From NCBI GenBank assembly GCA_012295275.1, contig CM022673.1:20522001-20586000 (forward strand): 64,000 nucleotides of DNA. Direction: 5' to 3'. The notes beneath the pieces were generated by a model, which did no database searches, had not been told where the DNA came from, and saw nothing but the letters and a program-made list of their open reading frames with translations. Origin of the DNA: Chrysomallon squamiferum. Its lineage: Eukaryota; Animalia; Mollusca. The translations under genes and the position numbers were made by a program. Numbering within the stretch: the stretch's first letter is position 1; the number at the start of each line of letters is the position of its first letter. This document shows positions 752 through 41,194 of this stretch, piece by piece.

Positions 752-806
752 ACTTCCGGTTTATAATGCAAAGTTTGAACTTCCTGACATCAAAGGTTAC
801 TTCCTG
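752..806 (+). promoter_or_regulatory. Cluster of three ETS-type motifs (ACTTCCGGT, ACTTCCTG x2) just upstream of the TMED start codon
   Basis: ACTTCCGGT at 752-760, ACTTCCTG at 779-786 and 799-806; ATG at 816. Typical of metazoan housekeeping promoters. Confidence 0.5.
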
Positions 807-815
807 TTGAAGAAA

Positions 816-1584: not shown

Positions 1585-1627
<43 letters not shown>

Positions 1628-17750: not shown

Positions 17751-18389
17751 GTCATCAGTGCTCTATTGAAAAATAAAGACAGTATTTCAGATGGACATAA
17801 TTTCAGTTAAAAATATCTTCAGATCATATATTATAAAGATTTTTAAAATTCTTCAAGATTCAGATATTTGTATTTAAGCAGACTTTCATATTACAAAAGA
17901 CGTAAGTATTTTATACAGGTCTGATCTATATAACTGGGGGAAAAAAGGGTAATAATACGAATAAAAGTTAAAAATTATAATAATTAAAAATTAAAAATTA
18001 TAATTTAAACAATATTATTATTAATTTAGTTAGCATTACTATATAGAATATTAGAATCGGCTGGATTTAAAAAAAAAAAAAGTTTATTTTAAATTTTAGT
18101 TGAGAAAGCAGAATATAATTAAAATTTGCATTGTCACTAGTGCTACTCAGCTAGTACTGTTGTAGCCAAGTGAGTAGTTAACTTCTTTTTCAAATGTTTA
18201 TATTTTTTAACTTATTCAAGTTATTGTGCACCCTTACTTTGCCTACATTATTTGTTTTGCTGTATGAAGTGTATCTATAATTCTATTGGTATTTTTTTTT
18301 AATTATCGTGCACCATTAGCATATTATATAAGGTTAGTTTGTCGTACATTGTTTGCTTGCTATATCTTTCAGATAACATAAATCTAAAT

Positions 18390-18760
18390 ATTTTGTATAT
18401 TTCCCCGCCTTTTAAGAAATTGACTAGTTCTGTTTACAAGGTATTTATACATTATTTAACAGCGTATTTGTTTACAAAAACCGGTTAGATATTTCTCGCA
18501 AATTCTCGTTTTACGGCAGGTGCCGAAATTGTCCATTTTCCACCGGTGCGCGCCACATTTTAAACACCTTTGTTTTGATTGAATTTTGCGCTTTTTAAAA
18601 AAGATGCCACTTTTAGGGAGAAAATTATACAGCTGTCTGAAACCCCTGAACGATGTAAAACCAGACGAAACCTTATATACGATTCCTCATACAAAGGAAC
18701 AGTTCCGATCAAAAGCGTATCCTTTTGCTGATTTTTCTATTCAAGATGGCGGCGTACACA
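18390..18760. promoter_or_regulatory. Probable bidirectional promoter for GEN1 and BAZ1B
   Basis: Start codons diverge about 850 bp apart (17750 minus, 18604 plus). Local CpG-rich patch with E2F-like TTTCCCCGCC (about 18400) and GTGCGCGCCA (18546-18555), and a perfect YY1 motif CAAGATGGCGGC at 18742-18753. GEN1 has an acceptor just upstream of its ATG (17763), implying a non-coding first exon nearer this patch. Confidence 0.65.
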
Positions 18761-21700
18761 TGATATTTTATGTCAAATACTAAAATGTAAAAAGATTGAT
18801 GTTTTCGTTGAATGGTACCATTCATATTTTTATTTTTCAAGTACTCCTTTTCAGTTGATATCTTTATTTTTGTAGTAATGTTGTTGTTGTTATTAATATT
18901 ATTTAAAATACCAAGTTTATTTTTATTCATAATTTTGTCTTGGCAAATTCAGAAATTGGCAAAAACCAAACATGCATTTGTAGTAAAACTCGATTTAATT
19001 TCATAAATTCTAGGTTTCTTGGCAAGATGTTACTTACAGACTTTTTGTTTATTGTCTGATTCTTTCAAATCTGTTACAAACGCTCATGTGTAACATTTTT
19101 TGTTGTCATACAGTTTCTACAAATTAATTTTATTTAAGTTAACATTACTTTTATTTGATTGCACTATTTATTATTATTTTTTTTAAATGCATAAATATAA
19201 TGTATAGCAGTTACAATAAATGGCTATATATATGAATCCTTTTGTAAGAAGATGATAGATTAGTTGTAATATATATATCTTTCTTATGAGAAAAAGTTGG
19301 TTGTGTCAAAAATTTGGTGTTACATAAAAATGTAATGTGTTTTCAACAGATTAGCATATTTTCTTTTTGGATGTGCAGATATGTAACATTAGTTATCACC
19401 AAATGTTTTTGCTGCTTCATTTTGTTTAATACATTACATTTGCCTTTACGATGTGCATTGCTGTTTTTATAATTTTTCATACAAATCAGGAAAAAATGAA
19501 TTCTGGAAAGTAACTGAATGTTACTTGAACATTTACTTTCATGTTTGCTTTTTTATTTTTCGTCTGTTGCCTGACTTAAATTTAGAAGAGTATGTTGATA
19601 TCGCTACAGGTTGACTCACCATGGGCAACAAAACCCTTAAATTAAATTTCTTTTTGAGCATTTTATATGCAAGTTACACTGCCTAAAATTATTATATCAT
19701 TTAAAGAACAAGGTATAAATTACTACAATTATTTGCATCTATCAGTTATTAAAGTCATTGAATACCAGTTGTGTGTCATTGATACTGAGCTGTGCTTTGA
19801 TTTAAAATACAGAATCGGATATGTTTACTTTATTACAACTAATGCTAGTTATCTTAATTATAATAATAATTTCCCCCAAAAAATGGTTATGATCAAACAG
19901 GTACGACTAATGCTGCATTTTTTGTGAATATGTAATATATGTAGTATTTCTCCTGTGCAAATCTGACCTTTTGAAGACAGTTAATATGAAAATATGTACC
20001 TTTTTCTACCTGTTCTCTGTCATTTTTTTTTCAGTTTGGAAGAAAGGCTGTATGCACACACACACAAAATGGGATTAGGCATGATTAATAAGCATATTGG
20101 GTTTTACATTACTATTTAAAGGAAAACATAGTTCACCAGTAATAATGCAGACAAAATAGGTGGATACAGTTACTGAATACAATAATTAAGACAAAATATA
20201 TACGAAATAAAGTAACTTTTTTTCTTTGAATTGTAAAAACAATGTTATTATAGTAATATGTTATACACAGATGTGTAGTAATGATGCAGACATTTTAAAC
20301 AGCATCTTGCTGCACATGAAATGTACAGCAAGGTTACCTGCACAAGAAATGTGTACTTTTTTATTACAGTCAATATCAATAATTATCCTTAACGTGAACA
20401 GTGAATATGAGAAACAGTTGAGTGTGTACAATGATAAGGTTTGGACATGCCAGTGCACTGGACATATTAACCTAACGCACGAAGAAGCTTGGAATTCAGA
20501 GAAGGCTGCCATTAAAGTGGTGAAATCACAGTTTGCAAAGTGCTTTGAAAAACCTGTTCTTGAAATAGTGCATCACAGTAAGTATCTTTCTTTCAACATG
20601 GATGATTTAAAAACAAAACAAGAAAATTAATACATGTACATAAATACATATGTTTCTTCATAACTAGATAAATACAGGTTGAGAATTGTTTATCTGAAAT
20701 GCATGTGACCAAAAGTGTTTCAGATTTCAGGATATGAGGAGATAGTCTGAGCCTAAACACTAATTTCTTCTATAGTTATACAGGATCCTTAGCCTGTACT
20801 AATAATATTTTATTTTTATTTATTTTTTTAACTTTCCATTGTATATGCAAGGGCATTTTTATTGATTATATTATAAATATCTATACCAATAAAGTGTTTT
20901 GTAAAATGTAGTAAACGTTGTGGAAACTAGTGCATTTCTTATTAAAAAAAAATTAATTTTCATATTATAATTAATTGATACTTGTAGATACACTTTCATT
21001 GGATCAGCTTGTTGACAAAGCATGGCTGAGAATACAACAAGTGCTCTGTGTTGGTGAGAAGGTCACTTTGAAAGTCAAGAATGCAGGGAAAAGGCAAGTG
21101 ACCAGTTTAAAGTTTTGAAAAATTCATTATTGTGAGGAATAATATTTATATTGTTAATTTAGTTAATGTTTGAATTGGGTGGTAGAGTAATCTTTGAATA
21201 CTATAATATTCTTATTTTATTTATTTTCTTATTTTCTTATTTTATTTTATTTTTATGTGTGAAATAAATTTACAAGATAAAATATCATGTATTTATATTG
21301 AATATAAAAAGGTTATTTTACTGAATTTTTTTTTTATTTACAGCATTCAAGGTGTTGTGACACAAACAGAGCCAAACTCAGTAACGGTTAGTATTTTTCA
21401 CTCATACCAAATAACTTATTATTACTATTACTTCAACATGTAACTTTGTGCAAATTCAGAACACCTGTGTAGACATTTTTTTATATTTCTTTAGATATAT
21501 AATTAAAAATACAAAGGCGATACCGTCTTATTTCTCAGGCAACCAGACTATATATAATTATTTTAAAAAACCTAAAAAACCAACAACATTTACATGTAAT
21601 TACTCATGAGTATTCTTTGACACTTTTATACATTGATTCTATGTTAAGTAATATATTCTGACAGAAATACTGATAAGATGGCAAATAGATTATGATTTTT

Positions 21701-24700
21701 GGATACGTGTTAACAACCAAAATGTGAAACTCTTTTGACAGTTTTGTTGTTTTATGTGTTTCACTGTAAGTAAAACTGAAATTATTGTTTTAGATTAAAA
21801 TTAATACATATTTCATCAGAACATATTTCAAAGAGTAAAATGTGTTTAAAAAGTTTTAACAATTGGAATTAATCTTGAGTTTTTTTAATTAATTTTTTTT
21901 TATCACCATAATAGCATGGAAACCAAATCAAAAACATATTTAAATAAAAGCTTTTTATTTATTTCACAAATAATTATAAAGCAGTAAAGAACTATTAAAG
22001 AAATAATAAAAAGAAAATGTAAGTATAAACAACAAAGTCTGTATCAGACTCAATGTATCTGATGGATCAATTCCCAGTTTAAACAACTCATGTACAATAA
22101 ATATATACTGATGACCTACAGAAGTTTATATTACATAATTAAAGCATAAAAGACTCTTTTTTTGTTAGAATTTGAATTAAGCTGGCATGATTAAATAATT
22201 ATTTAAGCAGCTGCCAAATATATATGTCTGCATATTTTTATCATGTTTTAGACAAGTACCACAAGTAACTGCAGTTCTCCATCAAGTGATAAAGAGAATA
22301 CAACTGAAGAAAGTAAAGAAGATTCTCCCAAAAAATGGACACCTCCTAAAGTAAATATGCTGTCATTTGTTTCGTTTTTATTGTATTTGCAGTTTTATAC
22401 CTGACATTAATAAACTGACTCTGTGTAAGTTGAAGAAGAAAAATTGTTTGGATCAAAACAATATTTTTATTTTAAATACAGCTTAAAACCTCACTACTGT
22501 ATGTAATATTTTTGTAAAAAAATGTTTATTTAATAAACATCCTGACAGCAAATTCTTAATATTTCAGCTTCTGCCTTATACTTACACACTGAAACTTGAG
22601 GACGATACTGTTATCATATCAGTACCAGCTTCTGACATCACGTGAGTTTGTGTTATTATTGTTGTTATTGTTATTATGAAATAATCATGGTGTTTAATGT
22701 TATTTGGTTAAAATTTAAAAAAAAAATGTATATTGTAGACGAAATGAAAAACTACCATCAAAAGAACTGATGCGATTGTTCATTCGATCAACTGGAATAC
22801 GACATGGTGTGAACACCAGCAGTCCCTGGGTTGTTAATGAATCTTACGTGAAGAAATATTCACTTCCAAGCAAGTTTGCTGACTTGTTTGTCTCTCCAGC
22901 TAAGGTGAGAGTTTGACAAAAACATGGGAGGTATATTAACATTGTTTCTTTGTTTTTGTTAGCTGCAAGTAATTATTAAAGTAGCAGATTAATTAATTCT
23001 TGATTAAAATTTATTTCTTTTATATATTACTATTTTTTTTAACTATATATACCCTTTTGTAATTAACTATACACAATCAGTTTAAAAAATGAACATAATC
23101 TGATTTAATTAGGCATTTGATAGACTTTTCTTTTCATATAAAAATTAAGTATTGTACATCATTTATAAATCATTACAGATGGCTGAAGCTGGAACTCGTT
23201 CAGTTCAAGAAGCATCAAAAAAGAGAAAAATTAGGAAACAGGCTAATGGTACAAAAGCTAAAAGAATGAAACATGAAAGTTGTTCTAAAAATGATGAAAA
23301 GAAACGGAAGAGCAGTGGTTCCATAAAGAAAGTGAAAACTGCAGAAAAGTCATCAAATAAAACCAAGAAGAAGAGTCCAAAGAAAGAGAAGAAATCATTT
23401 GAAATTATTACACTTAATTCCAGTGACGACAGTTCTGATGAAGAAGTTCTGGCTAATATCAAAAAACGGCTTGACTCTGATTCTGATTCAGACACACCGT
23501 TGTACAAACTTGCTTCACCCAAAAAACTGAAACAGGCTTCAGACTCTGACTCTGATTCAGATTCACCTTTGTATATGCTAGCAAAAAGTCCTAAGAAGAA
23601 ACTGTCAGTTTCAAAACCTTGTACTCCCAAGAAATCTAAGAGTGATAAATCACTGAAGAAGTCTCCTACAAAGTCTGCAAAGAAATCACCATCTAAAATG
23701 AAAAAGTCTGAACTTACACCCACCAAGAATAATCAAAAAAAGGTAAAAAGAAAAGAATTATTTTTTTTTAAATATTTTATTTTCTTTATTTTTATTACAG
23801 TTAATTATAAAATTATAACTTCTAACAAATACAGTGATGAAGCAAGTTAAATACATTTTCCAAAGTTTCTTGCGCAGATTCCTTTTTGTAAATAGCTCTT
23901 TTAGAAATGTTGATTATGATTGCAGGGATTAAAGCAAATGACACTTCTGGATATAGCAAAGAAAAAAGGGATGAAAACTCCTGTAAAAAACATGAACAAA
24001 AAAATACGTGCAGCATCACCACCAAGAACTCCACCAATTGTTAAACGGTAAATGAAAACAAATGTGTGTTGTGTGTGTGCATTAATTTTTTAATTTTTTT
24101 TATTTTAAAAGTAATAAAAAGTACAGAGAAAAGTTTAATAGCATTTTTAGATTTCTTCTTGATTGAAATTAATGAAATTACTGACAATTATCTTTACCAT
24201 TATGATTTACCATTATTCTGACATTTCTCTCTCTCTCAGATATTAACTTACATTTTGCTAATTTCAGCTTATTAAATCTTCACAAAAATAATGAAAAAGT
24301 GAAGTTTGGTCTTCTGGTGAAAAGGGCCATTCTAGTACTGGATGCCAAACAGCGGGCAAAATTGCCAAATGAAATTAAAGATATTGTTCAGAAAAGATAT
24401 GAAGTTCATCAGGAAAAAAAGATGATGTAAGTATGAACATTTCCCTTATTATTAAAAGTTCTGATTTTACTGGGGAGGGGGAGAAATGAAGCATTAATGT
24501 TTTTGTTTCAGGTATGTGCAGATTGTTAGTGTGAGAATCATGCAAAATTGCCCTTGTGTAATCTATTTTCTGTTCATGCAAATTTATGGATAGGTGAACA
24601 ATATTTTGATCATTGTTGAAAATAAAATGCCACTTGCTACATCATCAGAGTTGGCTTTGCATGACACTTTCTTGTTCAGTGGTGCATAAATTAATCCATT

Positions 24701-27700
24701 AAAACGAACAACAAACTTCAACATTATTAAATTAAACACAGTAATTTCAGAATAGTTTTCATATTAGAAACAGTAATTGTGACTTTATTTATATGTGTAT
24801 AATAATATAACCATAAATTTAGGAAGCTGTCAGATTTGGGTTTTTTTAAATGTTGGGGGAAGTGTTTTTAGAAAAAAGAAAAAGTTACTATAATAGTTTC
24901 GATCTAATAAGATATATTTTCAATTCCTTGTATTTGGTCCAGGACTGGAAATCAATGCATTTCATACAATTTCATACAGTTTTCTTTGATATTTATTTTA
25001 ATAATATAAGAAATTACTAATTACTTCTTTCAGTTTATCAAAGACACATCGATTATCAGTAACTTAATGCTATCTCAGTTTTATCTATGTATTCGAATTA
25101 TTTAAAATTGTATTACAAAAGCAAAACAGAAACCAAGAACACTAATATAATGATTTGTACAGATGTTTTATACAGGATTTTCTAGGAACCATGGAATATG
25201 ATAATTTGGCTGTCAAAAATACCAATAATGTTTTCATTTAATTTAACCCTTTGATTTGTTTTTTGTTGTATATAAAGGTGGTTAGGGATTTGGTTATAAT
25301 TATACCCCTTATTGGTTTTTACAGTTTCACAAAAAAGAAAATAATATTTTTAACAGTCAGCATCACATTTCATACACTTGCACACACAACATTGGCTCTT
25401 GTTACGGTTACAGAGTTATCCATCTTATTCGTTTTGATAATTATTTATAATATTTTGTCTGTATTTTTTAACTTATTAAGAAATTGAATAGCAATTTTTA
25501 AACTGTTCTTAGGGAAAAAATGACTGCTGAAGAGAGAGAGGCATTCATTCAGTTGAAGAAAAAGAAAGAAAAGCAGAGGCAACTTGAAAGATTGAAAGAA
25601 CTTCGAAGAGTATGTTAATTCTTTTTTCTTAGATTCAAATATTTTAATTCTGGTAACTTAACATCATGAATTAGTTGACCAGTTCAGATCACTTGATTCA
25701 TATTTAGAACAAACAGTATGTAGAAGTGTAGAAATTTAATTAGGTTTGTACAACACTATAAATTGTTATTGTTTTTCTTTATCAGAAATTTGAAGATCAG
25801 GGATTGAATTTATCGCCCTTGCCAGTACCAAAGCTTGTATCCACACCTGAAGGTTTGCCAAATGAAGCATTTGGTGATGTTGCTATGGTGACAGAGTTCA
25901 TTAGTTGCTATGGTGGTTTACTGATGCCTGAGGATAAATATCCAATTCATACAGGTATAATATATTGTTTTATATAATAATAAACAGAATTAAGTAAATG
26001 AATTTGAAATGCAGTTCTGATATTTTTATTATTATTTCCATTTTTGTAACATTTTTTATTTGCTTTTCCATGTTTTATTTTTTTATTATAATTGTTATTT
26101 TTAAAAATAAGCTAAACAATTAAGAAAACAACAAATATGATCCCAAAGATGTTGTTGTGTAAACTAATTAATGTTTTTATAGATGCATTGATGAAAGCCC
26201 TTGTATCTGGTAAAAGTGGCTATGGATACCTGACACGAGTTTTAGTGATTTTGTTGCAGACATTATTGCAGGACCAGCTTGCTGAGGTAAGTTAATTATT
26301 GATAGAGAACTCTCAACAATTGACCCAGAAGGTTGTAACAGGCAGATGTGGCTTAAAACATTGTTTTAGCATAGTTTTTAGCCTCTATTACTGTCACAGA
26401 AGAATATCAGTTTGCCTTTTTAGCTTATTAAAACATTATTTCTATATATTTAACATATTATGGCTTGTACTGAAGTCTTTTAGCAAAATATAAGAATGAT
26501 CCAGGGTGTTAAGAAATTAAAAACCACTCACTGACAATTATGTTAATTTTTGCTAATTAAAGTAAAGGAAACAAAAATTGAGTGGTTTAATCAGGATATT
26601 GTTGGAATCAATTTTATGTGTAATTTTATGTTGAATTAGGATGGGTTGGTAAATTGTAATTTTACTATATCACATTAAAAAAAATGTATAACAGTTTCCT
26701 TAGTTAAAATTTTTAAAAAGAAAATGAATTAAATTTTAATTCTAATTAAAACCAGTGAAGTAAAGAAAAAATAGCTTAATATTATATTGAATTGAAAAAT
26801 GAATTAATATTAAAAATTTTATATTAAATATTTAATATTTCAGGGCTATTCTGAACTAAAAGTTCAACTGTCAGATATTCCTGTGAATAATTACACTGTA
26901 TCAGAACTTGTTCGACTTTGCCTACGTAAACATGACACTGATGATGGGGCAAGTGAAGGCTCATTTGAGGAGGAAGATCAGGAAGTGGTACATACTTCTT
27001 TTTAAAAGATCTTTTTTAATATAAAAAATAAAAAACAAATCTGATCTTTGAAAGAATAAAATGTTTTCAGGACATGTTTTTTTTTTTTACCAGATATCTG
27101 TAAACTTTTGTTCTATTATTTTATAATTTGTATGTTTGTACAGGTTTTACTCCTTTTATTTACAGTTTAATATTACTTTACTATTATTAAGAGGAGTAGT
27201 ATCATCATCATTACTTGGTTATTATTTTTTTATTATATTTAATTTGTTTTTGTAGCCTGATAGCATCATTGAATTACTGGAGCAACATGAGCTGTTTGAA
27301 CTGGATCCGCTACAGAAACTCGAAGTGTTGAAAGGTCTCTGTTTGAGAATTCTTGGTTCATACTCAGTGCAAGACTACATGGAGGAGAAACAGAAAGAAT
27401 CGTCTGCTTTGTAGTAAGCCATTTGTCATGTTTTTAGATATTATAAAAATACTGTCAAACTGGAATACCTTAATGCCATAACCTACACTGGTTGTTCAAA
27501 GCCCAATCAGTAGAATGTTTATAAAAATTAGCTTGCCACTGTTAAAAACAGTAGCATATGGAAGGGGATCAGAAAGTTTCCTTTTATATTATCTTGTAAT
27601 TAAAAATGGAAATAAAAGACACCTTATAAATATTGTTTATAAATATGAGTATCTTCAAATGAACATTTATCCTTTGCACATTCTTTTCAATAAGAGAAGT

Positions 27701-30700
27701 ATTTAAATTGTGTAATAACAATAACAATGAAATGAAGTGGTTGTTGTTTTTTTATGAAAAATAAATTGGGGCTAATAAAAAAAACAAATTTGCAGTCGCA
27801 GAATGCAGCAAGAACAAAGAAAGAAAAATGAAGAATTACGAGCAGAAAAAGAAAAGAAAAAAGAACAACAGGGAAAGGAAGAGAATGATGACAAGTCAGA
27901 AACAAAAGAAAACAAAAGTGAAGATGCTTCAAAACAAGGTTCAAATATTGTCATAATCATTCCAATTAAGTTTCAGCTAAAGAGAACTATGAAATCCTTA
28001 GGTTTGCTTTTAAAATCTTCCAATTTTTAACTTCCTTAAAAAATCGTAAATTGTATTTACTTTAATTGTACATAAATGATTCTGTGAATATACATGCCTT
28101 CTTTTAATGCCATAAGATTTTCAGTTTGTTTTCTCTTAGGATTAAAATTTACAGGACAAGATAAATTTTTCTAATTTGCAATTTAAAAAAATATAGCCAA
28201 AATATACCTAATAAAATTAACCATTTTAAAAATGTCAGAGGTAAAAGCAAGTTTGTTGATTTGGTTGTAACAATTGTGTTGTTATTTACCCTGCAGGTTT
28301 AACACTGACAAGTTTCTATGGTGCACAGAATTCAAACACAGCACCTGCTGATGGACCAGCTAACAATGTGGCAGACCTTGATGCTGATGGTGATAATTTG
28401 GCCTCCGTTGTAAGAAGACGTAGGATGATGGTTGCTCAGGCTGCCTTGGAGAGAGAGAGAAAAGAAAGAGAAAGACGAATTCAGTAAGTGAAAAAATTTG
28501 GAATTGATTTTGATGCCTTTCATTTTTGTAAGTGTGATAGATAAGAGAAGGAAGAATAGTTTGGAAGAACATCTGTGACTGAAGTATAACATATTATGAT
28601 TGCTTAATAAGCAGTTCTACATATAATAGTATATCACAGGAAAGTAGACAGTAATAATGTGAGTGAAATGGAAAGACTAAAAACAACCAAAAAACCTGAA
28701 ATTTTAAAAACAATAATTTTTTTCCTCCTTCAGGTTGGAGAAGGAAATGGAAGAAGAAAGGAAACTGAGAGATAAAGAAAAGTTTGAAGAACAGTTTAAG
28801 GTGTGTGTATAGATAGATAGATATACACATTTTTTTTTAATAAATCAAAAAACTTGATTGATTACTTTAGTCTTGAATTAATGTTTTATTTTCAAACGGG
28901 ATGATCTTTAAGGTCACGAAAGATAACTGGAAAAATATAATTCATCACATCCGATTTTTAAAGTGACCAAAGTTCACTTTTTATTTTTTTTATTTTTTAA
29001 ATGCTAATGTTACATTTGTTCTGAATACAGACTGGTATAATACTTGCAAAGAAAGTTCTTAGAACTACTCCTATAGGAACAGACAGGAATCACAGTCGTT
29101 ACTGGATTTTCAACAGCTGTACGCCAGGATTGTTCATAGAAAAAGGTAACATGTTCATAAAAAAACAAAAATCTAATTTAAATGTTACTTTTCTAAAAAT
29201 AAATGAACATTCTATATTTCTTGATTACAACTATAGCCATCATTAAATAATGTTTCTAAATCAATGATGTATCATTCTTACCTTTCTAAAATATTCCAAC
29301 ACTTCAACTTCTCCATAAGAATCATAGAAAAAAACCAAAAAACATAATTTTAAGTTTAATTGTATCTATTTTATATTTTGTAAATGTTGAGCAAGTGTGT
29401 TTCTGTGCTTTATTAAACTTGATTATTTTGCAAAAGATTTCTAGCAAGCCATTATTCCAACAGAAAGCCTAAATCATAGCATGCATATCTGTGACTGTGT
29501 AATTATATTGTAGGCTGGGTAAACAGTGATGTAAACTACAGCACATTTAAGTCACCAGAAGGCAGAGATGCTGATAGTGTTCCATCCACTCCAAAAAAAT
29601 CTGAAATCACAGAGTCAAAACCATTTACACCTGCAAAACGAGGTCGTCGCAGAAAAGATGAGGGTCAGACATCGTAAGTTGGGTTTTATTGATTTGGAAA
29701 TGTCCAAGCTGATTAATAATGTGTTGTCCAGTAATAAAAGTTGAAGAACAACAACTCTCTCTCACAGAGCCAGAAATTTACAGTTAATAAATTCTTGAGA
29801 TCTGAGACAATTCAAAACTTACTTTTATTATATGAAGTCATATAAATCTGGCATTACACTACAGATTTAAAGAATGACCACAGTGATTAGGGAGACACAT
29901 TGTGAAACATTTCTGACATTCCAGAAATGTTTTTTTGCCAATTTTTAGTTACACCATAATGATGAGGGTCGAGGATGTTGAAAATTAAAAATCTCAACAA
30001 TAAATATAGTTTAAGTCTGAGAATTCTTTCTTAAATTTAAAATTCCACAAGGATTTTATTATGATCCTGTATTATCATTACTTTTTTGCAGCATTCCACA
30101 TCCAGGACAGAATCTGTGGTTTACCTATGATTCACTGAAAGATTTAGAAAAACTGATGAGCAGTCTTCATCCACAAGGTTCCCGTGAGAGTGCACTGAGG
30201 CAGGAGGTGAAAAAGAACTATGACAGCATCAGCAAAAATATAATACTAGCACAACGGCAAGTATTCCTGGCATACTTAGATAATTCAGTACTATTTGCTT
30301 TTTATATTTATTTCTACATTTGTTTTTCTGTTCTAAGCTAAATTAAACATTAAATTGATAATTTATATACATAAACCATTTGATATTAATTTGAAACTAC
30401 ATCACTGAAAAATAATAACTGATTGTTTTTAATGTTACTTATTTATTTATAATGTAAGAAAGAGTCCTAATGGAAGTTAACAGACTTCAGAATATTTTAA
30501 AGTTTGAATCTGTGATGAAAGTGCAGGGGTCCAGAACACAGTCAGGAATGTGGACTGTTGACTTGAGACGTCTGCATGTGGCAGAAATTGTCTCAAGAAG
30601 GATATGCAGCTGTCTGAGATTTAATATTAGATTATTCAGAATATTTTATTTTATTTTATTTTTCATGGGTTTAAAATGTTTATGTTTTTTTTTGTTTTTT

Positions 30701-33700
30701 TTTAAATAGAACAAACCTGGAATTAAGAGAGTCTGATGGAGAAGTTGAAATGTTGGAAGGTTTTAGAAAGGTGAGAACCGTATCATTTGTATATAAAACA
30801 TTATTTAATGGTAGCTATAGTTGTAATCCAGAAGTAAAGAACAAAGAGTTTTATCCTATTCAATTCACTATTTCAAAACATTTCCTAGGCATTTTAAATG
30901 TTCTGATCAGGAATGATTTGATGTTTTTCAACTTTGTTTTTGCTTTTTATTAATAATCATTAAAAATCATTTATTAATTAATTAATTTATTTATTTAATT
31001 TCTTTTTTAAACACAGGAACTTCAGGACACAGAGTTAAGATTGAGAAATGGTGGACTTGGTGGTGTTAATGATTTTGGAAAGTGGGAAGGAAAACTTCTA
31101 TCTACCAAAGAAATATCAGAACTAGTAAGTGTTTAGAACAAGGAAGTTAAATAATTACATAATAAATTTTTGTTTTAATCCATGATGAAAGTGCAGGGGT
31201 CCAGAACACAGTTGGAAATGTGGACTGTCGACTCCAGATATCTGCATGTGGCAGAATATATCTGGAGAAGGATACGCAGCTCTCTGAGATTTAAACATAA
31301 TTTCTTATTATATAGCTACATTTCAGAAATTAAAATGTGTCAGGAAGCAGTTTCTGAAATATACAGTTTGCCATAAAATAAAACAAAGAAAATAGTGTGA
31401 GTGCACATTCAAAACATTTTCAAATAATGTTTAATTAATAAAAATAAATAATGTAGTATAACTGATTGGTTCCTGGTTTAAAATACTTATATCTACAAAT
31501 AATGAATAAATATTAAGTATTGTGGGAACAATATATCAAAGCTGCTCTTTACTATGTCTAATCTTTCCTGTACGTAACTGCATGTTTTCATTTACTCTCT
31601 GACATTTTATTTTTGTCACTTTGTGTGAAAGTTAAGACTGAAAAATAGTGGATTTGGTGATGTTTCTGATTTTTGAAAAGTGGGAAGGAAAACTTCTTTC
31701 CACCAAAGAAATCTTAGCACTAGTAAGTGTTTAGAACAAGGAAGTTACATAATTACATAATACATTTTTGTTTTAATCCATGATGAAAGTGCAGGGGTGC
31801 AGAACACAGTTGGAAATGTGGACTGTCGACTCCAGATATCTGCATGTGGCAGAATATATCTGGAGAAGGATACGCAGCTCTCTGAGATTTAAACATAATT
31901 TCTTATTATATAGCTACAATTCAGGAATTAAAATGTGTCAGGAAGATTTTTCTGAAATATACAGTTTGCCATAAAATAAAACAAAGAAAATTGTGTGTGT
32001 GTGTGTGCGCGTGCATTCAAAAATTTTAATGTTAAAGTTGAGTCATTATGCAACTCGCTGCAAGAAACAAAATTTATATTAGTTTTCTGATGTCAGTGGA
32101 AATAGGTTTGTATTTTGTCATTAAACAATGCAAAAACATTTTCAAATATTATTTTAATTAATAAATATAGGTAGGATAATTGATTGGTTCCTAATTTAAA
32201 ATATTTATGTCTACAAATAATGAATAAATTTTGAGTATTGAGGGGACAAATGTATCAAAACTCATCTATTCTGTGTCTCTAACCTTTCCTGAAAGTAACT
32301 ACATGGTTTCATTTACACTGACATTGCGTCAGTGGTGTGAAAGTTAAGATTGAGAAATGGTGGACTTGGTGGTGTTTCTGATTTTGGAAAGTGGGAAGGA
32401 AAACTTCTTTCCACCAAAGAAATCTCAGCACTAGTAAGTGTTTAGAACAAGGGCCCAAGGAAGTTAAATAATTACATAATAGATTTTTGTTTTAATCCAT
32501 GATGAAAGTGCAGGGGTCCAGAACACAGTTGGAAATGTGGACTGTTGACTCCAGATATCTGCATGTGGTAGAATATATCTGGAGAAGGATACGCAGCTCT
32601 CTGAGATTTTAGCTTTATTTTCTTATTATATAGCCTCAATTCAGAAATTAAAATGTGTCAGGAAGAAGTTTCTGAAATATACAGTTTGCCATAAAATAAA
32701 ACAAAGAAAATAGTGGGAGTGCACATTCAAAACATTTTCAAATAATGTTTAATTAATAAAAATAAATAATGTAGTATAACTGATTGGTTCCTGGTTTAAA
32801 ATACTTATATCTACAAATAATGAATAAATATTAAGTATTGTGGGAACAATATATCAAAGCTGCTCTTTACTATGTCTAATCTTTCCTGTACGTAACTGCA
32901 TGTTTTCATTTACTCTCTGACATTTTATTTTTGTCACTTTGTGTGAAAGTTAAGACTGAAAAATAGTGGATTTGGTGATGTTTCTGATTTTTTGAAAATG
33001 GGAAGGAAAACTTCTTTCCACCAAATAAATCTCAGCACTAGTAAGTGTTTAGAACAAGGAAGTTACATAATTACATAATAGATTTTTGTTTTAATCCATG
33101 ATGAAAGTGCAGGGGTGCAGAACACAGTTGGAAATGTGGACTGTCGACTCCAGATATCTGCATGTGGCAGAATATATCTGGAGAAGGATACGCAGCTCTC
33201 TGAGATTTAAACATAATTTCTTATTATATAGCTACAGTTCAGGAATTAAAATGTGTCAGGAAGATTTTTCTGAAATATACAGTTTGCCATAAAATAAAAC
33301 AAAGAAAATTGTGTGTGTGTGTGTGTGTGTGTGTGTTCGCGTGCATTCAAAAATTTTAATGTTAAAGTTGAGTCATTATGCAACTCGCTGCAAGAAACAA
33401 AATTTATATTAGTTTTCTGATGTCAGTGGAAATAGGTTTGTATTTTGTCATTAAACAATGCAGAAAACGTTTTCAAATATTATTTTAATTAATAAATATA
33501 GGTAGGATAATTGATTGGTTCCTAATTTAAAATATTTATGTCTACAAATAATGAATAAATTTTGAGTATTGAGGGGACAAATGTATCAAAGCTCATCTAT
33601 TCTGTGTCTCTAACCTTTCCTGAAAGTAACTACATGGTTTCATTTACACTGACATTTTATTTTTGTCAGTGGTGTGAAAGTTAAGATTGAGAAAGGGTGG

Positions 33701-34645
33701 ACTTGGTGGTGTTTCTGATTTTGGAAAGTGGGAAGGAAAACTTCTTTCCACCAAAGAAATCTCAGCACTAGTAAGTGTTTAGAACAAGGGCCCAAGGAAG
33801 TTAAATAATTACATAATAGATTTTTGTTTTAATCCATGATGAAAGTGCAGGGGTCCAGAACACAGTTGGAAATGTGGACTGTTGACTCCAGATATCTGCA
33901 TGTGGTAGAATATATCTGGAGAAGGATACGCAGCTCTCTGAGATTTTAGCTTTATTTTCTTATTATATAGCCTCAATTCAGAAATTAAAATGTGTCAGGA
34001 AGAAGTTTCTGAAATATACAGTTTGCCATAAAATAAAACAAAAAAATTAGTGGGAGTGCACATTCAAAACATTTTCAAATAAAGTTTAATTAATAAAAAT
34101 AAATAATGTAGTATAACTGATTGGTTCCTGGTTTAAAATACTTATATCTACAAATAATGAATAAATATTAAGTATTGTGGGAACAATATATCAAAGCTGC
34201 TCTTTACTATATCTAATCTTTCCTGTATGTAACTGCATGTTTTCATTTACTCTCTGACATTTTATTTTTGTCACTTTGTATGAAAGTTAAGATTGAGAAA
34301 TGGTGGACTTGGTGGTGTTTCTGATTTTTGGAAAGTGGGAAGGAAAACTTCTTTCCACCAAAGAAATATCAGAACTAGTAAGTGTTTAGAACAAGGAAGT
34401 TAAATAATTACATAATAGATTTTTGTTTTAATCCATGATGAAAGTGCAGGGGTCCAGAACACAGTTGGAAATGTGGACTGTCGACTCCAGATATCTGCAT
34501 GTGGCAGAATATATCTGGAGAAGGATACGCAGCTCTCTGAGATTTAAACATAATTTCTTATTATATAGCTGCATTTCAGAAATTAAAATGTGTCAGTAAG
34601 TAGCTTCTGAAATATACAGTTTGCCATAAAATAAAACAAAGAAAA

Positions 34646-34702
<57 letters not shown>

Positions 34703-37700
34703 CATTCAACAATTTTAATGTTAAAGTTGTCATTATGCAACTCACTGCAAGAAACAAAATTTATATTAGTTTTCTGATGTCAGTGGAAATAGGTTTGTAT
34801 TTTGTCATTAAACAATGCAGAAAACATTTTCAAATATTATTTTAATTAATAAAAATAAATATAGGTAGGATAATTGATTGGTTCCTAATTTAAAATATTT
34901 ATGTCTACAAATAATGAATAAATTTTGAGTATTGAGGGGACAAATGTATCAAAGCTGATCTATTCTGTGTGTCTAACCTTTCCTGAAAGTAACTACGTGG
35001 TTTCATTTACACTCTGACATTGTGTCAGTGGTGTGAAAGTTAAGATTGAGAAATGGTGGACTTGGTGGTGTTTCTGATTTTGGAAAGTGGGAAGGAAAAC
35101 TTCTTTCCACCAAAGAAATATCAGAACTAGTAAATGTTTAGAAAAGAAAGTTAAATAATTACATAATAGATTTTTGTTTTAATCCATGATGAAAGTGCAG
35201 GGGTCCAGAACACAGTTGGAAATGTGGACTGTCGACTCCAGATATCTGCATGTGGCAGAATATATCTGGAGAAGGATACGCAGCTCTCTGAGATTTAAAC
35301 ATAATTTCTTATTATATAGCTACAGTTCAGAAATTAAAATGTGTCAGGAAGATTTTTCTGAAATATACAGTTTGCCATAAAATAAAACAAAAGAAAATAG
35401 TGTGTATGTGTGTGTGTGTGTCTATACACACATTTAAAAACTTGAATGTTAAAGTTGAGTCATAACACAACTTGCATAATAATAAATTTATATTATTTTT
35501 CTGATGTCAGAGGAAATAGGTTCTTCTTTTATCATTAAAACAATGCAGAAAACATTTTCAAATAATTTTTAATTAATAAAAATAAATATATATATATTAA
35601 GTATTATGGGGACACGTATTTCAAAGCTGCTCTTTACTATGTCTAACCTTTCCTGAAAGTAACTACATGTTTTCATTTACTCTCTGACATTTTATTTTTG
35701 TTAATTTGTGTGAAAGTTAAGACTGAAAAATGGTGGACTTGGTGGTGTTTCCAATTTTGGAAACTGGGAAGGAAGACTTCTTTCCACCAAACAATTCTCA
35801 GAACTAGTAAATGTTTAGAAAAAGAAAGTTACATAATACATTTTTGTTTTAATCCATGATGAAAGTGCAGGGGTCCAGAACACAGTTGGAAATGTGGACT
35901 GTCGACTCCAGATATCTGCATGTGGCAGAATATATCTGGAGAAGGATACGCAGCTCTCTGAGATTTAAACATAATTTCTTATTATATAGCTACATTTCAG
36001 AAATTAAAATGTGTCAGTAAGTAGCTTCTGAAATATACAGTTTGCCATAAAATAAAACAAAGAAAATAGTGCGTGTGTGTGTGCATATTCAAAAATTTGA
36101 ATATTAAAGTTGAGTCATTACTTCAATAAATTTATATTATTTTTCTGGTTATGGTGAAAATAGGTTCTTATTTTGTCATTAAAATACTGCAGAAAACATT
36201 TTCAAATAATGTTTTAATGAATAAAAATAAATATAGGTAGGATAATTGATTGGTTCCTGGCTTAAATGATAAAATTAATAAATATTGAGTATTAAGAGGA
36301 GACATGTATCAAAGCTGATATTTTTTCTGTGCGTCTAACCTTTCCTGAAAGTAACCTCATGTTTTCATTTATACTTTTTATGTGTTGTCAGTTTGTGTGA
36401 AATATTAGTGACAGTTGCTAAAATTTCATAAACAGTGGTGACAACATTTTATTTCAAATTATACCACTGTGAAGGCAGGTTATTATGATCTGTGATGAAC
36501 ATGCAGGAGTCGACTGCAGATATCTGCATGTGGTAGAAATTGGCTGGTGAAGGATAGGTAGCTGACTAAGTTTTTCAGAATTTACATTTAAAAGTTTTAA
36601 CAAATGCATTTTAAAACAGTTTTAGTCCTTTATCCCAACATTTCCACCTCTATAATTCAAGATTTTGTGTTATGTACTCCAGATTAATATCTGAATATAG
36701 ATAATATAATATTTCGTTAACTTTAAAATGAAAATTTTCTTTTAATTATCAGTCAGTTTATGATTTCCTTCATCTTCAATTTCAGGGTTCCTGTTTAAAA
36801 GAGGTGCAGTCACATGTTCTCGAAAAGTTTCTGAAAGGTTTTATGAAACCAAAGGTTCCAAAAGCCCAAACAACCATTATACACAATACTGAAGACCATA
36901 TCAAAGGTAGAACATTATTTTTATTATTTTTCTATAGATTTACCAATTCAGGTTTATAAATAACATTTTGTTTCTGGAATTAAATTGGTTCCATCACACA
37001 ACTTGTGAGTTCTTGTTTAAAAAAAGTAAAAGTAACACAAAGTCCCCAGAAAACTACTGAATAGCTTTTAAATATAAATATGGATATGTCTGTGTATCGT
37101 GCTTTATAAAGAATAATGATCTAAGCTTCAGCTTTTTTCAAAACTAACATCAGTTATACACAATACTGAAGACCATATCAAAGGTAGAACATTATTTTTA
37201 TTATTTTTCTATAGATTTACCAATTCAGGTTTATAAATAACATTTTGTTTCTGGAATTAAATTGGTTCCATCACACAACTTGTGAGTTCTTGTTTAAAAA
37301 AAGTAAAAGTAACACAAAGTCCCCAGAAAACTACTGAATAGCTTTTAAATATAAATATGGATATGTCTGTGTATCGTGCTTTATAAAGAATAATGATCTA
37401 AGCTTCAGCTTTTTTCAAAACTAACATCAGTTACTGTAATTTCAGAAGAAGATGTTGGTGTTGAGGATGATGAGGATGACAAGAAACGATCATCACGAAT
37501 AGCACAGTGGAGAGATGCAATAGACAGCTGCCAGACTCTGTCCAGACTTCATGTTCTTCTTGGAATGTTTGACTCCTGCATCAAATGGGAGAAATCAGCA
37601 GAAAATGCAGTATGTTATTTTGAATTAAACAACTTGCTTTTCTTGAAAATTGATTTTTTTTTTTTTTTTTTTTTAAAAAAAAAAGTAAATCTCTATCTTT

Positions 37701-40700
37701 CTCATTAAATAAATATAATAATAACTAAAAAAAAAGTATCTGAAATCACTGAAAATGAAAAAAAAAAAATTGTTGTTACTTGTTTTTCAGAAATGTAAAA
37801 TCTGCAGGAAAAAAAGTGGGATGATGATTTGCTGCTGTGTGATGAATGTAATCAAGCTTTCCACATGTACTGTCTGCGTCCTGCCTTGACCTATGTGCCC
37901 AGGGGTGACTGGTTCTGTCCAGCTTGCATTGTAAGTACTAATAATAACAAAAATATTTAGCATTAACTTTGAAAAGGAAAATAAAATCTAAAATAAATTT
38001 GCTCAAATAAAAAATACAGATTTAAAACTAAAATTATGTTTAAATTACCTATTTGCAATAAATTCATTATTATTGTTATTAATTTCAGTTGATATTTTTG
38101 TTACTGTTTTTTTTATATATATTTTTAGCCAGCATCTCAGCGAAGAATAAGAGCCCCACGATATAAAGAACCTGTGAGTTTCTTTTTATTTATATATGTA
38201 TTCTGTTGGCCTAAATGTGTGTGTGTGTGTGTGTGTGTGTGTTTGTTATGGTTGTTATTTTATTTGATTCTGGTTAAAAAAAACAAAAACAAAAAACATG
38301 CACTGAGTATAATAAATGGAGATTGTAATTTTTATTTTTGTTAGCAAAAATGTTATATAAATGAGAAAATGTTAGCACACATGCATTTCAGTACCTTTTA
38401 CTTTATCTGTTGTTAGAAGACTTTGATCTCCTCACACAAAACAATAAAAAGGTGCATGGTTGATTATAAAATCTATTCAGTTTGTTTGTACCTACTATTC
38501 AAGTTACTTCTGAAGGAATTTATTTTGTTTTTGTGTGTGTTCATTGTGATTTATAAATTGCTTTAATTATCTGTTAGAACGACTATGGTCTGTCTGAAGA
38601 TGAGGAGGAAGAAGAAATGGAGCAGAAGGTGATAGAGCATGAGGTAAACTGTGTGGTGTGTGGAAAAGACCAGGAACTGTTAAACTGTTACTCTTGTCCA
38701 GCCGCCTACCATTTAGAGTGTCACGACCCCCCACTGAGAAGACCTCCCAGGTAGGTTACACAGAAATAACTGTACTGCTTCACGTTCAGTCTTGAAATTA
38801 CAATGACACATATTTGTACTATGTAGCCCCTTGTGAGATGTGCTTTTTGGAGGTTTCACCACACACCAGAATACTTAATTTTTGTGTTATTAATATATGA
38901 AATTTTAACCATTTAGAAAAAGATGTTCATAATAATATATTATGATTGTTCCTCATAAATTAATAATGGTAATGCTTGCTTTTTATAATCAAAAAGTAAT
39001 ATTTTTTTGTGTTTTTTTTTTTTCACAGAGGTGTATGGTGTTGTTCAGATTGTAAAAATGGAGGACCAACAAAAGGAACCAGATCTAGAAAACGTAAACA
39101 ACCACAGCGTAGAGGTGAACTCATTTTTTTAGTCTGTGACTCATTACTGGGCTGTACATATTGTTATTAATGGTTTTATTTCAGGAAGAAATGTTACATA
39201 TTCTTTATTATTTTCCATTTACCTTCAAATTTCCCTCCAACAGTTTTTATTTCCATTATTTTAGTGCAGTTGTAAAATTTCAAATAAATGTTTAATTGTG
39301 TATATAGTATATATTGTTTGTTTTTATTCATTTTTTACTTTGTTTTTGGGGGGTTTGTTTCCTGTTAAATTTACAATATTTTACAGTTTCTTAAGTTATT
39401 ACATAAACATTTATTTTATTTTCTCATAGCTGTGACAAAATCAAAATATGTCTGTGAATCTTCAAGTGATGAATCAAATAACGAGAGTGAGAAAGAGAAC
39501 ACAGAAGATGACATCACACCTAGAAGAGTGAAACAGAAAAAGACAACTTACAAAAAATCACCACAAAAGAAATCACGGAGGTCACATGAAGACATTGAAG
39601 AAACCTTAACATACTCCAGGACAAACAAGCGAGCTCCATCCGAGTTGTCAGTTAGTATCAGTGAATTTCCTTGTCTGAAATTCCCAGACTGGTTCTGGCT
39701 TGAATTAATCATGCAGCTGTATTTGTATAGCTGTTCTGCAGAGCATTCAGGCACATCACTTGTGACAGATAATTAGTCATTTGAACTGTTTTTATGATAT
39801 TACATTACGTTACACACGATAGATACAGTAAGCCAGTTTATATGGGAATTGAGTTTGTTCTTCAAAGTCAACACAGTCCTTAAAAACCATAAAAATCCAG
39901 GAATTTTTAATTGTGAGAATTGAGTATTTAAAAATAATAATAAAATGTTATGAGTGGTGTGTGGACAAAACCGAGTTTACCAACTGACCTATCAATCCCA
40001 AAGTCAGGGTTCTAAACTCTGAGCTACAGCCCAGTTATACAAATAGTGGATAACTTTTGAAGTAAAACTGAATTTTGTTTGTTTGCTAAGAATTAATTTG
40101 TAAAGATGGAAAAAATTATTCGTGTTTTGATGACATTGCATCTAAATACTGTTTGTTAATATATGGCTTTTGTGAAATAACTAAATGTATGGGGATTAAA
40201 CAAAAGTTGTGGGTAATTTCAAAAAAAGAAGAAAAAGTAACGAATGTAACTGATTGTATTTTTATTTGTTACAGATCTGTGAAAATATTTTGGCAAGATT
40301 GACAAAACACGAGGCTAGCTGGCCATTCATTCAGCCTGTGAACAAAAGAGATGTGAGGATTTATTTACTAATTGCCTAACTGATATGGAATTACGTTTTA
40401 TTTGACAACCTGCATGATTTACTAATATGTATATTTTTTGTATTAAAGGATTAATAATATATGGCTGCATTTTGGTTTTTAATTTTGTTTTAAACAAATT
40501 ATTATTTTATAAGAAAGGATGTAAAACAATACTATACAATTATAGAAAAGAAAAATTTAAAAATGTTTTCTTTTTCAGTAAGTTTAATCCTGAATGTTCA
40601 AATTAGCTTTATAGTTTAAAAGAAGATTATTTTTAATTTGAATATTTTACAAAGGTGCCTGATTACTACATTGTGATTAAACACCCAATGGATTTCCAGA

Positions 40701-41194
40701 CAATCAGACAAAAATTGATGAGACTAAGCTACTCATCTGCCCAGGAGTTCATCAAGGATGTCACTCTTGTGTTTAAAAACTGTAGTGACTACAACAAGGT
40801 TTGTCAATAGAATTAACTATTTTAATCATTATTAAATAGTCAAAAATAATATTTGATTTTCTTAATATTTCACTTAAAAACAAAAATACATTTTTAACAA
40901 TGGATTCAAAAACCTAAAGGTTTCACTAAAGTGAAACTAGACTGTTCAGGTAACATAAAATTGGTTTTATGTAAACAGAAAAATCATTACTTGGTTTACT
41001 ATCATGATGAATTGTAAATGAAAAATGAGATCTTGACTTTGTGTTTCCAGGTTGACACTGACATATACAGGTGCATGGAGCAGATGGAGAAAGAATTTAT
41101 GCATTTGCTTGGAGAAAGTCTGCCTTTTTATTCATACAGCCGAGATTCCATCAGCCTTGAGGAAAACAGCAGAAAGAGGGGAAAGAAAACTTGA
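18604..41194 (+). CDS. BAZ1B: BAZ1B/WSTF (WAC, DDT, WHIM, 2x PHD, bromodomain), 33 coding exons, about 1538 aa if one missing nt in exon 26 is restored
   Basis: Exons: 18604-18716, 20402-20577, 20988-21093, 21344-21386, 22252-22350, 22568-22641, 22739-22904, 23179-23742, 23926-24047, 24268-24426, 25513-25609, 25786-25954, 26183-26286, 26844-26987, 27256-27413, 27796-27938, 28297-28483, 28734-28800, 29031-29145, 29514-29673, 30092-30256, 30710-30770, 31017-31124, 36786-36906, 37446-37609, 37791-37930, 38129-38173, 38578-38750, 39029-39114, 39430-39650, 40275-40352, 40655-40798, 41051-41194. WSTF-type motifs: [99 protein letters not shown]...PDYY...HPMDFQT. Confidence 0.93.
18717..20401 (+). 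other. U12-type (minor spliceosome) GT-AG intron, BAZ1B intron 1
   Basis: 5' splice site GTATCCTTTT at 18717; branch site TCCTTAAC at 20386-20393 just before CAG (20399-20401), with no polypyrimidine tract. Joining gives FRSKAEYEKQL, matching WSTF FRTREEYEARL. Confidence 0.92.
20675..20796 (+). mobile_element. Short Tigger/pogo-type MITE (MER46/Tigger4-like ends) in BAZ1B intron 2
   Basis: TA|CAGGTTGAGAATTGTTTATCTGAAATGCATGTGACCAAAAGTGTTTCAGATTTCAG ... GGATCCTTAGCCTG|TA: TA target-site duplication, imperfect TIRs, and body similar from memory to MER46C with CpG decay. Confidence 0.6.
21094..21343 (+). other. GC-AG intron (BAZ1B intron 3)
   Basis: Donor AAG|GCAAGT is required for the phase-2 join to CAG|CATTCAA (GKSIQGVV). 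The nearby GT at 21098 is out of phase. Confidence 0.8.
30257..30709 (+). other. GC-AG intron (BAZ1B intron 21) hosting a snoRNA
   Basis: Donor CG|GCAAGT gives [14 protein letters not shown] (WSTF LARKPNLGLKSCDG). The GT at 30261 gives an out-of-frame stop. Confidence 0.8.
30507..30621 (+). ncRNA. SNORD94: Box C/D snoRNA, SNORD94/U94-like (U6 Cm62 guide), intron-21 paralog
   Basis: Box C GTGATGA 30512-30518; guide GTGCAGGGGTC then D' CAGA; hairpin CTTGAGAC..CTGCATGTGGCAG..GTCTCAAG; box D CTGA 30614-30617; terminal AATC/GATT stem; about 90 nt upstream of the 3' splice site. Confidence 0.85.
31177..31291 (+). ncRNA. SNORD94: SNORD94-like C/D snoRNA, array copy 1
   Basis: Box C ATGATGA 31182-31188, GTGCAGGGGTC-CAGA, CTCCAGATAT-CTGCATGTGGCAG-..ATATCTGGAG hairpin, box D CTGA 31284-31287. 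Confidence 0.85.
31775..31889 (+). ncRNA. SNORD94: SNORD94-like C/D snoRNA, array copy 2
   Basis: Box C 31780-31786, box D 31882-31885; guide GTGCAGGGGTG-CAGA. Confidence 0.8.
32494..32608 (+). ncRNA. SNORD94: SNORD94-like C/D snoRNA, array copy 3
   Basis: Box C 32499-32505, box D 32601-32604; loop-stem variant CTGCATGTGGTAG. Confidence 0.8.
33093..33207 (+). ncRNA. SNORD94: SNORD94-like C/D snoRNA, array copy 4
   Basis: Box C 33098-33104, box D 33200-33203; shares variants with copy 2. Confidence 0.8.
33831..33945 (+). ncRNA. SNORD94: SNORD94-like C/D snoRNA, array copy 5
   Basis: Box C 33836-33842, box D 33938-33941; shares variants with copy 3. Confidence 0.8.
34430..34544 (+). ncRNA. 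SNORD94: SNORD94-like C/D snoRNA, array copy 6
   Basis: Box C 34435-34441, box D 34537-34540. Confidence 0.8.
35181..35295 (+). ncRNA. SNORD94: SNORD94-like C/D snoRNA, array copy 7
   Basis: Box C 35186-35192, box D 35288-35291. Confidence 0.8.
35851..35965 (+). ncRNA. SNORD94: SNORD94-like C/D snoRNA, array copy 8
   Basis: Box C 35856-35862, box D 35958-35961. Confidence 0.8.
36487..36572 (+). pseudogene. Degenerate SNORD94-like copy
   Basis: GTGATGA 36492-36498, mutated guide ATGCAGGAGTC, D' box and first hairpin deleted, AGATATCTGCATGTGGTAGAA retained, terminal box reads CTAA. Confidence 0.7.
36877..37433 (+). repeat. Apparently perfect 277-bp tandem duplication spanning the end of BAZ1B exon 24, its donor and most of the intron
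   Basis: 36877-37153 repeats as 37154-37430 (TTATACACAATACTGAAGACC...CTAACATCAG) with TTA microhomology at the junction. Confidence 0.92.
39963..40032 (-). mobile_element. Possible tRNA-derived SINE head relic
   Basis: Minus strand GGGCTGTAGCTCAGAGTTTAGAACCCTGACT... resembles a tRNA 5' end with an A box; the B box is degenerate and no full cloverleaf forms. Confidence 0.4.

Follow-up and report, generated by a model that had tools for sequence, protein, structure and literature searches.

Human SNORD94 (U94) is a small nucleolar RNA (snoRNA) of the box C/D class that serves as the guide for U6 C62 and is hosted by the gene PTCD3 (PMC6466398), and it has also been reported to bind LARP7 (PMC11863803). 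In human cells, knockdown of SNORD94 lowered C62 methylation 1.72-fold, as one report describes (PMC6894857). Among amplified snoRNAs, the SNORD113/114, SNORD115/116, and rat Bsr arrays are described as orphan snoRNAs in repeated introns of imprinted non-coding mammalian genes (PMC11028025). The same review reports that animals mostly carry one snoRNA per intron, that two in one intron can yield a long RNA with snoRNA ends, and that such forms mostly coexist with the mature snoRNA (PMC11028025). The locus considered here lies in a stretch of 64,000 nucleotides (nt) of the mollusc Chrysomallon squamiferum (assembly GCA_012295275.1, contig CM022673.1, positions 20,522,001 to 20,586,000 of the forward strand), which is called the window and whose positions are used throughout. 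Its BAZ1B gene contains ten box C/D units, nine of them intact and one decayed, and most lie within a single intron. With a probability of about 0.7, eight of these form a real head-to-tail array of SNORD94-like U6-C62 guides, from which long snoRNA-ended RNAs mixed with mature guides are to be expected.

Guide copies and repeat units in BAZ1B

The nearest named proteins and the domain order identify the host as BAZ1B, not BAZ1A, with the WAC domain encoded in exon 2. Its closest protein is the BAZ1B-like protein of the gastropod Gigantopelta aegis (1250 of 1466 aligned residues identical, 85%), and a query with one exon matched 48 proteins among 86 candidates, the named ones being nearly all BAZ1B. 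Intron 23 is by far the longest intron of the gene, the remaining 31 measuring 97-1685 nt. GC donors are present in introns 3 (21094) and 21 (30257), and the one in intron 21 is confirmed by RNA contigs. The relevant parts of the gene are as follows.

18604..41194, +, BAZ1B (WSTF) host gene, 33 coding exons, 1532 amino acids (protein-guided gene model)
30092..30256, +, exon 21, followed by a GC donor (gene model; in RNA contigs of runs X6 and X7 the exon stops at this point and continues into exon 22)
30257-30709, +, intron 21, GC donor, holds snoRNA copy 0 (gene model)
30710..30770, +, exon 22 (gene model, RNA contigs)
31017..31124, +, exon 23; repeat unit 1 starts with its final 90 nt (31035-31124) (gene model, RNA contigs, unit alignment)
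31125-36785, +, intron 23, 5661 nt, holds eight intact copies and the decayed one (gene model)
36786..36906, +, exon 24 (gene model; its first letters adjoin exon 23 in RNA contigs X6 and X7)

All snoRNA copies are intronic and in the sense orientation relative to BAZ1B. They extend from 30507 to 36575, with one in intron 21 and eight plus the decayed copy in intron 23, and their ten C-box sites share a common core (30513, 31183, 31781, 32500, 33099, 33837, 34436, 35187, 35857, and 36493).

30507..30623, +, copy 0, intron 21 (Rfam SNORD94, 27.7 bits, E 5e-4 in a 1.7-kb search)
31177..31293, +, copy 1 (Rfam, C-box scan, covariance model)
31775..31891, +, copy 2, variant at the base beside D' (Rfam, unit alignment, covariance model)
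32494..32610, +, copy 3, G-C to G-U in hairpin 2 (unit alignment, covariance model)
33093..33209, +, copy 4 (unit alignment, covariance model)
33831..33947, +, copy 5 (unit alignment, covariance model)
34430..34546, +, copy 6 (unit alignment, covariance model)
35181..35297, +, copy 7 (unit alignment, covariance model)
35851..35967, +, copy 8 (unit alignment, covariance model)
36487..36575, +, decayed copy, outside the repeat units (C-box scan; covariance model, 23.8 bits; also in DNA run X1)

Every intact copy has box C (RUGAUGA) at its 5' side and box D (CUGA) at its 3' side with a short terminal stem, and the span from box C to box D is 106 nt in all nine. Copy 0, which lies 92 nt from the intron-21 acceptor, has box C at 30512-30518, the guide at 30521-30531, D' at 30532-30535, and box D at 30614-30617. 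It shares 90 of 106 letters with copy 1, the other 16 positions separating it from the intron-23 type, and hairpin 2 retains 14 of 14 pairs between the two despite three double changes and one single change. The decayed copy has an internal deletion of about 30 nt that includes D', and its guide and box D are broken. A covariance model of the family, run on the 64-kb window, recovers the nine intact copies at 98-101 bits, the decayed copy at its far lower score, and nothing else; these scores are partly by construction, because the model includes four window copies.

The tandem array (31035..36403, +; unit alignment, with junctions in DNA contigs of two studies) comprises eight units, each made of the exon-23 end, its donor, a snoRNA, and intron. 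Units are 597-753 nt long and 87-99% identical, and most pairs differ by 3-13% with distinct indels. In each, the terminal 90 nt of exon 23 come first together with the 5' splice site, and box C follows 50-66 nt after the donor. Identity is 98-99% within the pairs 2/4 and 3/5, which differ by 12 and 7 substitutions and form a recent two-unit block. Tandem Repeats Finder did not report the array, which has a period above 500 nt. The seven copies of the exon-23 end are listed below.

31632..31722, +, unit 2, 91 nt, frameshifted, with a stop; donor 31723 (unit alignment, gene model)
32344..32433, +, unit 3, 90 nt, frame open; donor 32434 (unit alignment, gene model)
32950..33040, +, unit 4, 91 nt, frameshifted; donor 33041 (unit alignment, gene model)
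33681..33770, +, unit 5, 90 nt, frame open; donor 33771 (unit alignment, gene model)
34287..34377, +, unit 6, 91 nt, frameshifted; donor 34378 (unit alignment, gene model)
35040..35129, +, unit 7, 90 nt, frame open; weaker donor 35130 (unit alignment, gene model)
35717..35806, +, unit 8, 90 nt, frame open; weaker donor 35807 (unit alignment, gene model)

DNA contigs of runs X1 and X3, which come from two studies, carry intron-to-exon-copy junctions as well as the variants private to units 2/4, 3/5, 7, and 8 and to the decayed copy. Because independent contigs contain its junctions, the array is not an assembly artefact. The comparison covered two of the five runs with at least half of the query words, and one of these may be the source of the assembly. 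No single record covers the whole array, so the exact number of units rests on the assembly, and it is conceivable that units 4-5 represent a second haplotype. Contig depth in X1 is 107.5 over the snoRNA and 15.2 over exon 21, a hint only, as depth is not a copy number. The same holds for X3, where the unit-3/5-type contig has a depth of 272 versus 67-80 on single-copy parts, not usable as a copy number; the X3 sample may have more units of this type.

An original prediction made from the letters of this stretch had placed nine intact C/D units and a decayed one in introns 21 and 23 of BAZ1B, and the C-box scan, gene model, and RNA contigs bear this out; the variants that it named for copies 2/4 and 3/5 are also present. 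The array that it described is real, but it missed that the repeat unit includes an exon end and splice donor.

A separate duplication is found at 36877-37433, where a perfect 277-nt tandem repeat (277/277) consists of the last 30 nt of exon 24, the donor, and intron 24. Its second copy is preceded by CAG and would make an in-frame exon of 10 codons, and there is no snoRNA inside. This duplication is either very recent or an assembly error.

Family relationship and the predicted U6 target

The best Rfam family for the copies is SNORD94 (RF00613), at 25.4-27.7 bits and aligned over the whole model, and all nine intact copies were found in a whole-window search. At the gathering cut-off, Rfam returned no match in the 64 kb. 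Since the copies fall below that cut-off, they are not filed as RF00613 members and are treated as a likely orthologue, that is, as probable divergent relatives of SNORD94. The D' register of the guide is that of the Rfam SNORD94 consensus, and hairpin 1, the hairpin-2 tip, and the order of elements are also shared.

Relatives in other animals provide a broader view of the family. Scanning metagenome contigs with a sequence pattern yielded 101 stretches, and 98 loci (numbered with the prefix L) were examined. A stricter filter passed 45 of these (46 hits, 38 distinct sequences) and dropped 53, nearly all of them chance matches. The guide, the D' register, and two covarying hairpins are common to the window copies and the 45 homologous loci. 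When Rfam was applied to ten loci, nine matched SNORD94. L067 scored 93 bits, and the other eight, which are not of the vertebrate type and likewise lie under the cut-off, scored 23-45 bits; these scores bridge the gap. In an alignment of 27 sequences, four from the window and 23 selected among the 46 hits, the elements present are box C, the guide, D', a pair of hairpins whose loops are similar, a degenerate C', and box D. Nine of 13 pairs are changed on both sides, the terminal stem covaries in four of four pairs, and 97% of cells are paired versus 23-44% when the sequences are slid (related sequences inflate the shuffle control). One five-letter word stands at the end of each of the two hairpin loops in most homologues, the first loop being outside the search pattern, and this word is a candidate protein-binding site.

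Among the loci scanned, homologues are hosted by the genes for methionyl-tRNA synthetase (MetRS) and a mitochondrial carrier, an XRN gene, RRM2, and UBAP2, and perhaps also by a Myb-domain gene. None of the 98 loci matches any of seven BAZ1B proteins, and conserved hosting by BAZ1B is rejected for these loci. The vertebrate-type SNORD94 with 93 bits (L067, 450-588) is in an intron of the ribonucleotide reductase small-chain gene, not in PTCD3. Two copies occur in six of 37 short homologue-bearing contigs, and in five of these six loci an exon lies between the copies and the flanks are not repeated. The other, L034 (5560-6471), has two copies 640 nt apart in the mitochondrial carrier gene with no exon found between them, and it appears to hold both in one intron; four related loci have one copy. 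No repeat of an exon end plus donor, and no locus with more than two copies, was found among the other-animal loci, whose contigs are short. MetRS carries the snoRNA at no fewer than eight (at least 8) intron positions across samples (21 loci, L004-L076, grouped by flank similarity), a pattern that points to fast intron-to-intron movement within one gene. The MetRS of the snoRNA-hosting animals is of the cytoplasmic type and is 72-81% identical to that of many named animals. Overall, these loci show that a change of host and the presence of several copies are normal for the SNORD94-like family.

The SNORD94-like identity given in the original prediction is thus upheld by the best Rfam match, the guide, the D' register, and the hairpins, though under the cut-off. 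The host does differ, being BAZ1B and not PTCD3, but this was overstated as a peculiarity given that host change is the rule, with at least five other hosts. Likewise, the single human copy was the wrong baseline in view of the two-copy contigs and the many MetRS positions.

Read by hand against U6 58-68, the guide forms 11 pairs (two of them G-U) and places C62 opposite the fifth base before D', the same target as for human SNORD94 (PMC6466398). A short U6 motif matched no viral contig. The sequence of U6 around C62 is identical in human, termite, and Caenorhabditis elegans in the published sequences (PMC10184414, PMC10256727, bioRxiv 2023.09.16.558044). The guide is therefore likely, as predicted from this pairing, to direct 2'-O-methylation of U6 C62, and the 11-pair match to published U6 supports the earlier choice of C62 as the target by the D'+5 rule. 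A dosage expansion of about ninefold, which had been inferred as well, is not demonstrated: eight of the copies sit together in a single intron, and more than 1000-fold overexpression of SNORD94 in human cells is reported to have raised C62 methylation just 1.45-fold (P=0.12) (PMC6894857). The gain in guide dose likely falls far short of ninefold, and it need not be the trait on which selection acted.

Splicing, constraint, and competing explanations

RNA contigs of runs X6 and X7, both from one study, join exons 21-22-23-24, and exon 23 is joined straight to exon 24 in both runs. Because of this joint, the main mRNA sheds all eight guides in one 5.7-kb intron. RNA contigs lose rare forms and cannot reveal RNA ends or levels. 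Some RNA cover falls on the array intron in both runs and almost none on introns 21-22, although eight units pile up there and DNA carry-over is possible. The lack of cover on copy 0 is uninformative about its expression, because it is also missing in the DNA runs (four of four runs).

In the favored account of the array, a copy of the intron-21 snoRNA would first have come to lie about 58 nt downstream of the exon-23 donor. A single duplication would then have made the exon-copy junction, and later ones would have multiplied the unit, the last as a two-unit block (2-3 to 4-5), with unequal crossing-over as the likely means of growth. The 5.7-kb intron would leave as a single lariat and, once debranched, would be trimmed by exonucleases until these meet assembled small nucleolar ribonucleoproteins (snoRNPs) and stall. 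The products would be snoRNA-ended long RNAs of up to 4.8 kb (first to last copy) and mature guides of about 110 nt, whereas copy 0 in intron 21 would mature in the usual way. Such a mix is expected from known snoRNA biogenesis (PMC11028025). The guides would pair with U6 58-68 and bring fibrillarin to C62. A stronger version is unlikely but can be entertained: the excised intron 23 might persist as a 4.8-kb string of eight U6-guide snoRNPs, which would be the first snoRNA-ended long non-coding RNA (sno-lncRNA) in an animal other than a mammal, and also the first made of a canonical spliceosomal guide. The seven spare donors would then set alternative 5' ends to give a ladder of shorter strings, and the inner copies would be conserved because they work while joined.

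A different role for the exon copies has to be weighed as well. They could be non-coding or poison exons, such that minority splicing puts each snoRNA in its own intron, the transcript goes to nonsense-mediated decay, and snoRNA output is uncoupled from BAZ1B protein. Every unit does have a donor 50-66 nt before box C, and by matrices built on the 32 introns of BAZ1B, five of the seven copies have the exact exon-23 donor (score 7.4) and the other two a lower one (4.7). Every junction also offers an in-frame AG, a branch-point-like word and T-rich tract are found upstream in most units, one nearby CAG scores 4.6, and three of seven copies are frameshifted. This proposal is nonetheless improbable. 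The junction acceptors score -3.7 to -11.5 versus a median of 7.3 for the 32 true acceptors, and their AGs are in the lowest 1-27% of 479 background intronic AGs. No splice into an exon copy is among the five joints listed for four runs, in contigs that drop rare forms, and among the pieces listed the copies occur only unspliced in both RNA runs. Moreover, seven invariant donor letters would arise about 1 time in 5 by chance (estimated from 19% variable columns).

Sequence change across the units separates the snoRNA from the rest. The snoRNA has 3 variable columns out of 106, whereas the exon copy has 21 out of 91 (Fisher p=1.3e-5) and the next 110 nt have 16 out of 111 (p=0.003), and the mean pairwise differences are 1.2%, 8.2%, and 6.7%, respectively, with 12.8% in the rest. 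An equally quiet window of 106 columns appeared in none of 20000 shuffles. The quiet zone starts about 15 nt before box C and stops at the terminal stem, which are the edges of the snoRNA. The three snoRNA variants are mild (one beside D', one in the linker and also in copy 0, and one G-C to G-U change also present in three homologues), and none of the eight array copies has a damaging change. The seven exon copies decay like neutral DNA, with six synonymous and 17 non-synonymous changes (24% synonymous expected) and frameshifts in three of seven; a coding use for them is rejected by this neutral substitution ratio and the frameshifts. The better conservation of the snoRNA part that had been noted originally is thus confirmed. 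Since the guide copies are almost unchanged while the rest of the unit drifted, the guides are likely in use, and purifying selection probably keeps the snoRNA part of the array.

The array could instead be a neutral by-product of an unstable region, in which function is confined to copy 0 plus, perhaps, a single member of the array, the others looking intact through gene conversion or recent origin. Instability is suggested by the snoRNA-free duplication of an exon end plus donor in the next intron (277/277 identical), tandem C/D arrays are described as undergoing conversion (PMC11028025), overexpression barely lifts C62 methylation in human cells (PMC6894857), and one copy has decayed. However, the zone of low variation is bounded about 15 nt before box C and at the terminal stem in units that are otherwise 87-99% alike, conversion has no reason to track snoRNA edges, and there is no damaging change in any of the eight copies, which together leave neutrality a poor prospect. 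Finally, it is very improbable that the assembly expanded one or two units into the array. Units 2/4 and 3/5 (98-99% alike) could be two haplotypes written in tandem, and the array was not seen within any single long read. Against this, unit pairs mostly differ by 3-13% and have distinct indels, short-read contigs of two studies contain several types of unit and two types of junction, and at worst two units are doubtful.

Several points weigh against the favored account of an array of working U6 guides. The pairing was read against the U6 of other species (human, termite, and nematode). The covariance search with the Rfam SNORD94 model that had been proposed as a check did find a match, but at 25.4-27.7 bits, so that every copy (25-28 bits) is far under the SNORD94 gathering cut-off of 60. 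Among the homologues, box C, a portion of the guide, and the tip of hairpin 2 are invariant by construction, because the search pattern fixed them. Unequal exchange or gene conversion could spread one good sequence across copies that are not all expressed. The true acceptor of intron 31 (AAG) scores only -5.5, so the weak junction acceptors could function. In addition, mature snoRNA, a long snoRNA-ended RNA, and U6 methylation were not seen in the data, which are contigs of two RNA runs from one study.

Neighboring genes and comparison with known systems

The window has other features as well. On the minus strand, a gene at 9800-18500 stands head-to-head with BAZ1B and has a 720-codon exon, with no Pfam match on the three pieces tested; its upstream exons resemble a GEN1/XPG-type nuclease. 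A p24/TMED gene is at 700-5230 (+), a Ras-family exon that is presumably RERG-like is at 48027-48479 (-), and a weak match to the PEX1 N terminus is at 52468-52695 (-). The microRNA matches at E<1 in the window are microsatellites.

Literature searches, which covered openly available papers, gave no listing of the BAZ1B locus or of an invertebrate SNORD94, and genome-paper tables or snoRNA surveys may already list it. Like SNORD94, the window copies have box C, the same guide register before D', the hairpin-tip motif, box D, a terminal stem, and C62 as the predicted target. They differ from it in being about 20 nt shorter and scoring 25-28 bits, in having CAGA as D', in their host, and in numbering nine intact copies. 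With the other SNORD94-like loci (L004-L098), the array has multiple copies per gene in common, but a repeat of an exon end with its donor was seen only in BAZ1B, the contigs of the other loci being short.

The head-to-tail amplification with a neighbouring exon and intron, and the presence of unit subfamilies, recall SNORD113/114, SNORD115/116, and rat Bsr (as described in PMC11028025). The BAZ1B array does not belong with these imprinted arrays: its host is a coding mollusc gene, its guide is canonical and intact for U6, and its eight units share one intron in which the exon pieces are skipped, exon 23 joining exon 24 directly. Two or more snoRNAs in one spliced intron are also known from sno-lncRNAs (the Prader-Willi syndrome locus, SLERT) and from intronic clusters (PMC11028025). 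The sno-lncRNAs described in that source are mammalian and have two snoRNAs, whereas BAZ1B intron 23 has eight of one kind, known from DNA and contigs.

A changed modification of the spliceosome is not implied, and local amplification of C/D snoRNAs is already a known process. Rather, what is unusual about this locus is that a single intron of a protein-coding gene holds eight guides that are both canonical and conserved. Exonucleases can free just the outermost ends, which is why animal introns mostly contain a single snoRNA, and eight conserved copies, several of them tagged by variants, that share one intron of an essential coding gene constitute a natural test of whether and how inner copies mature. 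Compared with the SNORD94 known from human PTCD3, the family now appears as a U6 C62 guide that is extended well past the reach of the Rfam model and that frequently changes its host gene.

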